Source: Octopus sinensis
Lineage: Eukaryota
NCBI RefSeq assembly: GCF_006345805.1
Contig: NC_043003.1
Coordinates: forward strand, 86,490,001-86,554,000
DNA length: 64,000 bases
Direction of reading: 5' to 3'
The notes below the pieces were generated by a model that did not search any database, was not told the DNA's origin, and saw nothing but the letters and a program-made list of their open reading frames with translations. Positions 5,455-46,857 of this stretch are shown one piece after another. Position 1 is the stretch's first letter; each line of letters starts with the position of its first letter. A program made the translations under genes and the position numbers.

Positions 5455-6165
5455 CTCAAGGCCCTGAAAAGTTTAATGGTGACAACAAGTCGATTATATC
5501 GATCACCTCCCCCTCAGTGTTTCACTAGTATTTAATATATCGACTCCTAAAGTATAAAAGGTACAGTCGACATCAGCGGAAATTGAACTCAGAACATTAA
5601 AGGCGGATGAAATGCCTATTTCTTTACTACCTACAAGGGGCTAAACACAGAGAAGACAAACAAGGACAGACTAACGGATTAAGTCGATTATATCGACCCC
5701 AGTGCGTAACTGGTACTTATTTAATCGACCTCTAAAGGATGAAAGGCAAAGTCGACCTCGGCGGAATTTGAACACAGAACGTAGCGGCAGACGAAATTTC
5801 TTTACTACCCACATGGGGCTAAACACAGAAGGGGACAAACAAGGACAGACAATATATCGACTCCTAAAATATAAAAGGTAAAGTCGACATCAGCGGAAAT
5901 TGAACTCAGAACATTAAAGGCGGATGAAATGCCTATTTCTTTACTACCCACAAGGGGCTAAACACAGAGAGAACAAACAAGGACAGACTAACGGATTAAG
6001 TCGATTACATCGACCCCAGTGCGTAACTGGTACTTAATTTATCGACCCCGAAAGGATGAAAGGCAAAGTCGACCTCGGCGGAATTTGAACTCAGAACGTA
6101 ACGGCAGACGAAATACCGCAAAGCACTTCGCCCAGCGTGCTAAAGATTCTCCAAGCGACCGCCTT
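5455..6165 (-). mobile_element. tRNA-derived SINE (Meta/MESC-like central domain), multimeric
   Basis: Head GGCGG..CT.G.AGAA..TTAGCACGC, B-box GAGTTCAAATTCC, domain GTCGACTTTGCCTTTCATCCTTTCGGGGTCGATAAA; about 4 body units, including a local duplication (5535-5680 ~ 5851-6000). Confidence 0.8.
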
Positions 6166-17512: not shown

Positions 17513-17579
<67 letters not shown>

Positions 17580-17829
17580 TAATTAATCAATATAGGGTGG
17601 CAAAAAAAAATTTTGTAGAATTTTTTTGCCACCAGCGGCCTAGTGCGAAAAAATTAAATATCTGACCTAAGATTTTCAAATCATCGCACTCGCGCCAAAT
17701 TTATCGGCAGCAAATGGAATCGGCGGCTTATAAATTTGGCGCGAGTGCGATGATTTGAAAATTTTAGGTCAGATATTGCCGAGGCAGGGATTGAAGTTCC
17801 TCGTGAAAATATCTGTTCCGATCTGGCTG

Positions 17830-17934
17830 TTTCTTACTGACGAATCTATCGGCCTATGGAAGATTGGCTTGATTTAATTTAATCAGGTTAGTTTACCATT
17901 AAACAATAGATGAAACGGTGCATCGTATAAGAAA
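17830..17934 (+). ncRNA. Type I hammerhead ribozyme with extended stem II (copy 1)
   Basis: TTTCTTA-CTGACGA-ATCTAT..56 nt..ATAGAT-GAAA-CGGTGCATCG-TA-TAAGAAA; predicted cleavage after GUA at 17927. Confidence 0.88.
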
Positions 17935-18319
17935 TTACAGGGTAAATGTTTTTTTAATTTTCTCCTGGTTTGCGGAATTAATGTTATTTTGCGGTTGAAG
18001 CTTTGGCTGTTATTTCTAGTGTGTGAATGGCCTATTATGGCCGTTCCTTGATTGTGATGTTGAACTTATAAATGGTCTATGACTATTTAATTTTTTCCCA
18101 CTAGGCCGCTGGTGGCAAAAAAATTCTACAAAATTTTTCTTGCCACCCTATATTGATTAATTATGAATTTTCTGGTTAATTCCGTAATGGAATCGGCGGC
18201 TTATATTTATTTGCTGCCGATAAATTTGGCGCGAGTGCGATGATTTGAAAATTTTAGGTCAGATATTGCCGAGGCAGGGATTGAAGTGCCTCGTGAAAAT
18301 ATCTGTTCCGATCTGGCTG

Positions 18320-18424
18320 TTTCTTACTGACGAATCTATCGGCCTATGGAAGATTGGCTTGATTTAATTTAATCAGGTTAGTTTACCATTAAACAATAGA
18401 TGAAACGGTGCATCGTATAAGAAA
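18320..18424 (+). ncRNA. Type I hammerhead ribozyme (copy 2)
   Basis: Identical to copy 1; cleavage after 18417. Confidence 0.88.
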
Positions 18425-18810
18425 TTACAGGGTAAATGTTTTTTTAATTTTCTCCTGGTTTGCGGAATTAATGTTATTTTGCGGTTGAAGCTTTGGCTGT
18501 TATTTCTAGTGGGTGAATGGCCTATTATGGCCGTTCCTTGATTGTGATGTTGAACTTATAAATGGTCTATGACTATTTAATTTTTTCCCACTAGGCCGCT
18601 GGTGGCAAAAAAATTCTACAAAATTTTTTTTTGCCACCCTATATTGATTAATTATGAATTTTCTGGTTAATTCCGTAATGGAATCGGCGGCTTATATTTA
18701 TTTGCTGCCGATAAATTTGGCGCGAGTGCGATGATTTGAAAATTTTAGGTCAGATATTGCCGAGGCAGGGATTGAAGTGCCTCGTGAAAATATCTGTTCC
18801 GATCTGGCTG

Positions 18811-18915
18811 TTTCTTACTGACGAATCTATCGGCCTATGGAAGATTGGCTTGATTTAATTTAATCAGGTTAGTTTACCATTAAACAATAGATGAAACGGT
18901 GCATCGTATAAGAAA
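18811..18915 (+). ncRNA. Type I hammerhead ribozyme (copy 3)
   Basis: Identical to copy 1; cleavage after 18908. Confidence 0.88.
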
Positions 18916-19300
18916 TTACAGGGTAAATGTTTTTTTAATTTTCTCCTGGTTTGCGGAATTAATGTTATTTTGCGGTTGAAGCTTTGGCTGTTATTTCTAG
19001 TGGGTGAATGGCCTATTATGGCCGTTCCTTGATTGTGATGTTGAACTTATAAATGGTCTATGACTATTTAATTTTTTCCCACTAGGCCGCTGGTGGCAAA
19101 AAAATTCTACAAAATTTTTTTTGCCACCCTATATTGATTAATTATGAATTTTCTGGTTAATTCCGTAATGGAATCGGCGGCTTATATTTATTTGCTGCCG
19201 ATAAATTTGTCGCGAGTGCGATGATTTGAAAATTTTAGGTCAGATATTGCCGAGGCAGGGATTGAAGTTCCTCGTGAAAACATCTGTTCCGATCTGGCTG

Positions 19301-19405
19301 TTTCTTACTGACGAATCTATCGGCCTATGGAAGATTGGCTTGATTTAATTTAATCAGGTTAGTTTACCATTAAACAATAGATGAAACGGTGCATCGTATA
19401 AGAAA
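19301..19405 (+). ncRNA. Type I hammerhead ribozyme (copy 4)
   Basis: Identical to copy 1; cleavage after 19398. Confidence 0.88.
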
Positions 19406-19550
19406 TTACAGGGTAAATGTTTTTTTAATTTTCTCCTGGTTTGCGGAATTAATGTTATTTTGCGGTTGAAGCTTTGGCTGTTATTTCTAGTGGGTGAATG
19501 GCCTATTATGGCCGTTCCTTGATTGTGATGATATATATATATATATATAT

Positions 19551-20494
19551 ATTAAAATGAGGAGAGTGAAGAATTTGAACATTCAAACGTTTTGTTTATT
19601 TCCAGTTAGAATACAATTCTGACATGTGTTTCGATCGCACCAGTCGCATATTGTTGCATATTCATATACAGCGGCTTATGCATTATTGGTGCGATCTCTT
19701 CAGGGCAAATAAATTTGACATCGTTTGAAGTGGAATTTTCCTCCTTAGTTAGTTTGAATTAGATTTGGTAGCAGTACTAAACTCTGAACATTCCTGAAGG
19801 AGATGTTTTTCTCGACTGTTCGGGTGAAATTCAAAAGCATCAGCAGCAGTGATTGTTGAGGTCAACAACTGTTCCTGGTTAAGCTGGGGGTGATTAGTTA
19901 TAGAATACTTATTTTTGAATGATTCTACATACTTTATAGAAACAAGGCATATTGATAGCATTCACAGTTGATTGCATTATTTGAATTTTGTGAAGGTTAT
20001 TTATAGTAGTAGTTGATAATTGCTAATAAGATAAAACAAGGTGGTTATTTAAAAATAAAAAAACGAATAGTCTGTTGCATTTTCAATTCTTCTAACTTGT
20101 TACTTTTTATTTATAGGTTTTAAAGTGTTTTTAGGTTAAATTATATATAATGTAATATAAATCTATAAATTGAATTTAATTTTTATATTCTTAATATGCG
20201 TCTTAATAATATAGTTATTATAGTCAGGTTTAGAGAAAAGGTTTATGGATATTATATAGATTAATGCATCCTATTATTCAAATTTCTTAAAAAGAAAACG
20301 TTTGTGTAAGGAATTAAAACTTATTTCTAGTCTAGTGTTAACTAATTTATGTTAACCAATAATGCGTAAATCACTGCATATGAATATGCAACAATATGTG
20401 ATTGGTGCGATCGAAACACGTGCCGAACTTTTATTCTCTGTGGAAATAAACAAAAAGTTTCAATGTTCAAATTCTTCATTCACATCATTTTAAT
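19551..20494 (-). mobile_element. PLE 3' remnant with inverted pLTR copy
   Basis: 19551-19690 and 20355-20494 are ~140-bp diverged inverted repeats. ORF 19749-19961(-) contains NHPQLN, like the P-x-L-N end of PLE GIY-YIG domains. Hammerhead core on the minus strand. Confidence 0.65.
19614..19708 (-). ncRNA. Hammerhead-like motif with long stem II (stem I eroded)
   Basis: CTGAAGA-GATCGCACCA...TGGTGCGATC-GAAA-CACATG-TC (CACGTG in the inverted copy). Confidence 0.55.
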
Positions 20495-37889: not shown

Positions 37890-39045
37890 CATATATACGA
37901 CAGGCTTCTTTCAGTTTCCCTCTACCAAATCCACTCACAAGGCATTGGTCGGCCCGGAGCTATAGTAGAAGACACTTGCCCAAGATGCCACGCAGTGGGA
38001 CTGAACCCGGAACCATGTGGTTGGTTAGCAAGCTACTTACCACACAGCCACACCTGCGCCTGGATGTTTTTCGTGGAAAAATTGGGTTTTCTCTTTCTTT
38101 TGTATTATTATAAGATATTTAGTTGAGGCTTATATTTTTAATGAGCATGCTTTCCTTATTCAATCGGAATTGGATTGAAGTATTTCCGATGCATTGATAG
38201 AGACAGAAATTTGGCATTTCGGATTTCTGTATGCGGGGCATTGAAGTGTTTGCTTACAGGAATTTTCCTAGTCGTAGGATCCCGAATCTGCTGCCGGCGT
38301 ACTATCAGTCTGTCTCTCATGGTCACGCTAACTTGACCTATGCCTATTACACACACAAAAGTGTCCATTACACACACAAAATTGCCCATTACACACACAA
38401 CATTTGAGGACAAATTAAGTTCTTCAATGTACAGGTGAAGTGATTTTTTATCGAAAGTATTTGACCTACCTTGAATTTCTATGCTGAACCTTACAAAATG
38501 TTGATGCAAGTCCCGCAGTTAGGGTGGTTGCATTTTTTGACTATTGGGGATGTATTTGCCGTGGGTAATTTAGTGATGGTAAGTATACTTTTTAGGGATT
38601 TGGGTTGTCTTTTACTTTTAATAATTCAATGTGCTTCAAGTGATTTTTTTCACTGGCAGGTCGTTCAGAAAGAGGGATGTATTCTGATGGAGAATACTGT
38701 ATGCTTCCATATTCTTTGGATTGTGTGTTGATACGTAAGACAAAGTTTTGAGTGTGTCATGGTTTTTTTGTTTGTTTTTTTGTAATTCTTGGAAGTCTAT
38801 CGTTTTTGCACGTTTTATTCCGTTTTTGATTAAACTAACGGGGTATTTTCTTTCTAGAGATATATTTTTAAGTTCCTTGATTCGTTTATCTCGAGTTTCG
38901 GGATTTGATGCAATCGTGAAAATTCTTCTTGCCAAGTTGAACGTTATATTGATTTTAGTATGCTTTGGGTTGCAGAAAGACAATAGTAGATATTGTTTTG
39001 TGTCCGCTGGTTTAAAAGTAGAGGTCGGTTTCAATGTTAGTATCT
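37060..39045 (-). mobile_element. Penelope-like element 3' part: RT thumb, linker, GIY-YIG endonuclease and pLTR-like tail, interrupted by a SINE
   Basis: FKPADTKQYLLLSFCNPKHTKINITFNLARRIFTI..ERKYP (RT C-terminus), KKCNHPNCGTC (Cys linker), IGQVSVTMRDRL..QQIR..PVSKHF (GIY-YIG); the pLTR boundary is approximate. Confidence 0.8.
37662..38059 (-). mobile_element. CORE-like SINE inserted in PLE tail
   Basis: Full head, CORE-like segment and tail. Confidence 0.85.
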
Positions 39046-46249: not shown

Positions 46250-46857
46250 TGTTTCTTATATCATTATTGCCCACAAGGGGCTAAACATAGAGGGGACAAA
46301 CAAGGACAGACAAACGGATTAAGTCGATTACATCGACCCCAGTGCGTAACTGATACTTAATCTATCGACCCCGAAAGGATGAAAGGAAAATTCGACCTCA
46401 GCGGAATTTGAACTCTGAACGTAACGGCAGACGAAATACCTATTTCTTTACTGCCCACAAGGGGCTACACACAGAGGGGACAAACAAGGACAGACAAACA
46501 GATTAAGTCGATTATATCGACACCAGTGCGTAACTGGTACTTATTTAATCGACCCCGAAAGGATGAGAGGCAAAGTCGACCTCGGCAGAATTTGAACTGA
46601 GGACATAACGGCAGACGAAATACCTATTTTTTTACTACCCACAAGGGCCTAAACTCAGAGACGACAAACAAGGACAGACAAATGGATTAAGTCGATTATA
46701 TTGACCCCAGTGCGTAACCGGTACTTATTTAATCGACCCCGAAAGGATGAAAGGCAAAGTCGACCTCGGTGGAATTTGAACTCACAACGTAACGGCAGAC
46801 GAAATACCACTAAGCATTTCGCCCGGCGTGCTGACGTTTCTGCCAGCTCGACGCCTT
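46250..46857 (-). mobile_element. Meta-like SINE: one head plus three tandem bodies
   Basis: Units of ~183 bp joined at GAAATA-CC-TATTT (46433-46445, 46617-46629). Confidence 0.85.

Follow-up and report, generated by a model that had tools for sequence, protein, structure and literature searches.

A tandem repeat in the genome of Octopus sinensis, studied here in a window of 64,000 nucleotides (contig NC_043003.1, positions 86,490,001 to 86,554,000), is a young, apparently protein-free mobile element. We consider it probable that this is a non-coding hammerhead retroelement (a non-LTR retrozyme). Its plus-strand RNA is likely processed to single units and probably circular, and a Penelope-type enzyme, borrowed from other elements, likely copies it into (TA)n runs and would start twice on each RNA. 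The insertion pattern, the signature of a single template and the conserved helices were observed directly.

The window contains 3.7 tandem units, each of 490-491 bp, on the plus strand at 17730-19530, between two TA runs. The unit is G+T rich on that strand (T186, A126, G107, C72). The insertion has a left arm of 86 nt ending at site B, whose 3′ end faces the left TA run, and a right arm of 1.8 kb ending at site A. Its parts, located from the sequence (the TA runs) and by end calling (the arms), are:

17516..17576, no strand: left (TA)n target run
17575..17660, minus strand: inverted short arm (monomer positions 157-242) that terminates at site B
17657..17729, no strand: junction, an inverted fragment of monomer 283-341 followed by 14 nt of plus strand
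17730..19530, plus strand: long arm of 3.7 tandem units ending at site A (monomer position 132)
19531..19552, no strand: right (TA)n target run

The 14 nt of plus strand in the junction omit the loop and 3′ arm of hairpin C, and template switches within 17657-17729 are likely. No Penelope protein match was found at the retrozyme locus. Elsewhere in the window, a decayed Penelope-like remnant lies on the minus strand at 38186-39016 (32% identity to a 781-aa protein, E 7e-32), and tandem arrays (317 and 184 bp) are present at 5534-6114 and 46257-46808. Both arrays are presumably derived from a SINE-like repeat.

Every unit carries one type I hammerhead on the plus strand, which was read directly from the sequence and from a constrained fold:

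17830..17934, plus strand: type I hammerhead motif
17830-17836 with 17928-17934, plus strand: stem I, 7 bp
17837-17843 and 17912-17915, plus strand: hammerhead core, intact
17844-17911, plus strand: stem II, about 68 nt
17861..17894, plus strand: helix of 14 bp within stem II, five of its pairs G-U; the sole clearly plus-specific fold
after 17927, 18417, 18908 and 19398, plus strand: four predicted cleavage sites, 490-491 nt apart

Stem III is short and palindromic, and the triplet is GUA. A search of Rfam with the retrozyme returned nothing at the gathering score and, by E-value, only sub-threshold hairpin matches; it gave no ribozyme for the minus strand, on which no hammerhead core was noted. 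The active fold, with its core intact and stem II opening with A-U, is predicted to lie 3.4 kcal/mol above an alternative fold (MFE). At 18301-18442 an alternative helix can form between the strand before stem I and the second core segment; predicted to be 3.4 kcal/mol more stable, it would inactivate the hammerhead. The hammerhead of a second family, described below, has a different blocking fold (5.6 kcal/mol in prediction). A contig end from another organism (run X17) hints at a related hammerhead whose stem II is closed by G-C and whose triplet is GUC. No hammerhead of this type was found in the octopus genome, where a pattern for a short-stem-II relative gave two matches versus two in the control.

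Family 1, to which the window copy belongs, is dispersed and multicopy and lacks LTR architecture. The 2.7-Gb genome has 795 candidate regions for it, and the 40 of them that were scored gave at least 219 matches; full-length copies are 95-100% identical. Both of the sites at which its insertions end lie in a domain that is closed by a long-range helix (P1) and also contains P2, P3 and hairpins A and B:

17970..18187, plus strand: conserved domain closed by P1 (17970-17982 with 18175-18187)
18025..18059, plus strand: hairpin A (18025-18046) and site A (18058-18059), 12-13 nt downstream
18111..18168, plus strand: hairpin B (18111-18147) and site B (18159-18168), 12-21 nt downstream

Counted from the cleavage site, site A is position 131-132 and site B is position 233-242, both just 3′ of hairpins that had been named in an earlier note on this DNA. 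Site A is likely a start of reverse transcription, and site B likely a second one. Contigs from four organisms cover the unit, two of them with TA loose ends at site A; such contigs cannot show ends and are not taken as evidence of expression. Among the sequencing runs listed for the unit, none is recorded as RNA.

Ends of family 1 were called at 48 loci (39 fetched, the window locus, and eight picked by an unrelated pattern). The insertions are found in TA runs and mostly consist of two head-to-head arms with their 3′ ends outward. The scripted calls gave 30 loci with one arm ending at A and the other at B (A+B), none A+A, none B+B, 16 single-ended and two unclassified; read by eye, two further loci (L031 and L040) prove to be A+B, while L052 has two B ends and L045 a complex structure. 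Among the single-ended loci both sites occur as the end. The 3′ ends are fixed and the 5′ ends scattered, and the junction differs at each locus; because its coordinates vary, we regard the loci as separate insertion events.

The second family, with a unit of 534 nt, was found beside a Penelope element (L094:6969-8060; L155-L192). It has at least 228 matches and 739 candidate regions, with arrays of up to about 17 units. End calling at 39 of its loci gave 21 A+B, none A+A or B+B, 12 single-ended and six unclassified. The alignment of the two families, over the first 340 nt of family 2, scored 170 versus 121.5 ± 8.2 for shuffles (0 of 100). Among the 25 pairs of P1-P3, 14 are the same, seven are changed on both sides and four are exchanges between Watson-Crick and G-U, with none A-C and none broken, the last being partly built in because the helix registers were set by hand from plus-strand folds. 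When hammerhead and hairpin bases are included (48 pairs), 24 are the same, 20 changed on both sides and four on one side. The helices were anchored by hand on letters conserved between the families, and three non-structural alignments (A1-A3) did not enter the counts. The P1-P3 covariation supports RNA structure and, weakly, the plus strand; the four G-U against zero A-C one-sided changes are a small count. Diverged relatives of family 2 (70-80% identity) occur at L266:1264-1401, L106:7811-8189 and L254:131-186, the first two of which are two-armed, and all three could extend the covariation set.

The two arms of an insertion bear the signature of a single template. In 33 of 34 family 1 loci, the two arms agree at every polymorphic site (the permuted mismatch rate is 0.25, with 0 of 1000 permutations as low), and 16 locus-private variants are present in both arms; in family 2, both arms are identical in 21 of 21 loci. 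Arms cross the cleavage site 156 times in family 1 and 150 times in family 2 and never stop there, the closest running on for 5 and 7 nt when read by eye. Starts of the 5′ ends at position 1 (three in family 1, and five in family 2, where they pull the uniformity test to p 0.04) are chaining artefacts. This read-through and the common haplotypes are also compatible with a serious rival, which has the same element and enzyme and takes an uncleaved linear multimer as the template, the hammerhead and the circle having no part in mobilisation. The prediction that disfavours the active hammerhead fold also speaks for a linear template, as does the dispensability of ribozyme cleavage in vitro according to the available text of PMC11167929; furthermore, the "private" variants may derive from an unsampled source array, since 48 loci were examined versus 795 candidate regions. 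We nevertheless rate it as rather unlikely. The longest arms reach 9 units in family 1, 13.7 in family 2 and about 17 at one cut-off locus, although copying only truncates, and a circle would give such length free; moreover, the hammerhead stems pair in both families even though their letters differ.

The geometry of the arms bears on how often synthesis starts. Among 32 loci of family 1 the longer arm is A in 16 and B in 16, and the arm 5′ starts are more than 60 nt apart on the unit in 27. As the arm lengths are independent and the starts usually distant, fold-back copying of one arm does not account for the other. At most junctions the arms overlap, or are separated, by a few bases, and two of the 32 junctions are near-perfect palindromes. 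It has been proposed for the Penelope "tail" that it arises by endonuclease-mediated resolution (PMC8557442, in the part available), and self-priming from junction palindromes is argued in what is available of PMC3846280; by analogy, priming might take place once, at site B, with the A end coming from such resolution or from fold-back of the first cDNA. The two palindromic junctions would suit this course of events, but we think it improbable given that the A arm is the longer in half of the loci (1.8 kb versus 86 nt in the window), that the arm starts are so often distant, and that either site is found in single-ended loci.

The earlier note had based its case for selection on the plus-strand RNA on folding, holding that the monomer is folded on one strand only, by hairpins that are G-U-rich throughout. 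All eight stems that it named are present in the 490-bp unit, among them the 14-bp helix of stem II, in which we count five G-U of 14 pairs where six had been claimed. Among the other named stems, the 17752/17762-type hairpin has three of nine, three stems have one each and two have none; hairpin B has none in 13 pairs. The circular MFE structure of the plus strand includes 19 G-U among 144 pairs (13%) versus 20% in 60 shuffles, and an enrichment throughout is not confirmed. Nor is the monomer folded on one strand only: both strands surpass their shuffles (plus -148.2, z -6.13; minus -107.6, z -6.88), the minus strand folding through palindromic stems common to both. Most of the named stems are Watson-Crick and can therefore form on either strand. 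The plus strand is the more stable because its G+T-rich composition alone gives greater stability; the gap of -40.6 kcal/mol falls within the range of shuffles folded on both strands (-37.3 ± 5.6), 38 of 150 of which are equally extreme.

Within the unit, stem II is plus-specific (z -5.2 on the plus and -1.9 on the minus strand; 0 of 300 shuffles match the gap, eight sub-domains having been tested). The specificity is weaker in the whole hammerhead (0.023) and hairpin C (0.05) and not seen in the other five sub-domains (0.10-0.95). The Vienna tool concurs, with z -4.0 (0 of 200) for the hammerhead on the plus strand and z -1.1 (21 of 200) on the minus strand, and the hairpin at 17752-17770 does not stand above shuffles (z -0.9). 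Family 2 likewise has a plus-specific stem II (2 of 300), and there, unlike in family 1, plus-specificity extends to the whole circle (1 of 80).

Imperfect pairs were said to be mostly G-T, and a strand-neutral count does find 16 G-T versus six A-C, several of the stems in that count being probably chance pairings; this exceeds 50:50 (p 0.03) but not the 69% given by composition (p 0.44). Variants in stems that are shared among copies have no strand bias (G-U versus A-C, 9 against 9), and for private variants it is 50 against 35 (p 0.06). A genuine G-U bias exists in stem II and among the wobble changes of P1 and P3; elsewhere it follows the G+U-rich composition. A-to-I editing was considered as a source of G-U and rejected, there being no A>G excess (private A>G 12 versus T>C 31).

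A satellite or palindrome-rich element at the DNA level, with folding and G-T excess as by-products of composition or of fixed RNA editing, would agree with strands that fold equally against shuffles and with a G-T excess accounted for by composition, but is very improbable in the face of a strand-specific hammerhead, a stem II that is plus-specific in two families, fixed 3′ and scattered 5′ ends, locus-distinct junctions and the lack of an A>G excess. Relative to shuffles, folding is equally good on both strands, yet covariation is present between the two families, and the conclusion of the earlier note, retrozyme-like selection on the plus-strand RNA, is supported mostly by evidence other than its own argument: the plus-only hammerhead core, stem II, the family covariation and the insertion ends, which show copying from plus-strand RNA. 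The claim of one-strand folding is overstated and of minor importance; what matters is the pair of end sites with their covarying domain.

The octopus genome holds autonomous elements with RT and GIY-YIG domains, many of them intact. A young family of these (L092-L110) has a 781-aa frame, TA-run ends and two sites about 30 nt apart, and a hammerhead scan of it found none. By its linker motif, we take this family to be Neptune-like. A second Penelope group, located via a long-stem-II hammerhead, has ORFs of about 900 aa with RWL, DKT and YRDD motifs, and by these motifs appears to fit the Hydra clade as the available text of PMC8557442 describes it; Pfam gave nothing significant for these ORFs. 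Its young family (L253:2473-6674 and L255-L272) carries the long-stem-II hammerhead in the terminal repeat, and its protein query gave 10,048 first-look candidates. These Hydra-like elements have TA targets, end sites about 155 nt apart and a hammerhead stem II of about 55 nt. Two-armed loci of the young family are A+B in 6 of 6 (20 fetched); in an older Hydra-like family, whose loci were picked for a B end, the inverted arm terminates at A in 17 of 18 cases and about 20 nt short in the remaining one, and in none at B. No significant sequence similarity between the retrozyme and Penelope terminal repeats was detected in the 120 loci sampled (0.76 Mb), a small set given how many families there are, and any Penelope partner of the retrozyme is for that reason a best guess.

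On the reading that we favour, a non-LTR retrozyme copied from a circular RNA, the plus-strand multimer is predicted to self-cleave to unit length and circularise. A dimeric RT-endonuclease would bind the P1-P3 domain and cleave a TA run on both strands; its two subunits would prime on one and the same RNA, one directly 3′ of hairpin A, the other directly 3′ of hairpin B. How far each subunit copies would be random, with a mean of about two laps, and the resulting cDNAs would be joined head to head over a few bases. According to the available text of PMC11167929, a Penelope protein with a predicted dimeric structure can extend both strands and begins at two internal sites. Against our reading, the same text reports start sites in vitro that do not differ between strands, and uncleaved RNA as the dominant template. 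We tentatively suggest, as something possible rather than probable, that P1-P3 is a conserved two-site loading platform for both subunits of a Penelope RT dimer on one circular RNA, each cut strand being given its own start, and that the same rule may be what gives Penelope elements in general their inverted repeats and their one-sided tail.

Self-cleavage and circularisation have been demonstrated for retrozymes of coral, mussel and axolotl (PMC7229834, available part). As far as the available texts describe metazoan non-LTR retrozymes, the octopus element resembles them in its tandem non-coding units with one type I hammerhead each, low GC, a highly self-paired predicted circle and co-occurring Penelope-like elements. 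It differs in its stem II of about 68 nt and its unit of 490 nt, which is above the range of 150-450 bp in PMC7229834 and within that of 51-972 bp in a 2026 preprint (bioRxiv 10.64898/2026.07.22.740005), as given in the accessible parts of both. Those parts describe no two-armed TA insertions, paired fixed ends or covarying end-site domain, and the words "octopus", "cephalopod" and "inverted" are absent from PMC7229834. Hammerhead viroids and viroid-like circles are similar in size, self-pairing and hammerhead; the octopus element differs from the viroids in being genome-integrated with retrotransposition scars and in that no minus-strand hammerhead core was noted.

With Penelope-like elements, as covered by the available text of PMC8557442, PMC3846280 and PMC11167929, the retrozyme shares a head-to-head inverted arm, (TA)n targets, a type I hammerhead and two 3′ end sites, the extension being confined to one side; its inverted, 5′-truncated arm and two alternative 3′ ends (the tail) are as in Penelope-mobilised elements. 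Unlike them, it apparently has no ORF, its arms run for several laps of a small unit, and its end sites are 107-130 nt apart versus 30-40. The one-of-each end rule is near strict in the retrozymes, whereas the Penelope literature, in what was available, is only qualitative ("often", "optionally"). Hydra-clade elements (PMC8557442 section 11, as available) have the long-stem-II hammerhead, TA targets and A+B ends in common with it; the Hydra-like elements of the octopus genome, assigned to that clade by motifs, differ in having no significant sequence similarity to it. The Penelope inverted arm with one-sided tail and the two start sites in vitro are already known from these texts, and the literature available, mostly without subscription papers, yielded no paper on retrozymes of cephalopods or on a strict rule that pairs one end of each kind.

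How retrozymes are mobilised, and how Penelope elements acquire inverted ends and a one-sided tail, are stated to be open in the accessible portions of PMC7229834, PMC8557442 and the 2026 preprint. The octopus families supply a small defined RNA, two mapped candidate starts, a mutable covarying domain and young intact elements of the partner type; with the RNA, the candidate starts and the partner-type elements in one genome, the question of mobilisation is directly testable biochemically.
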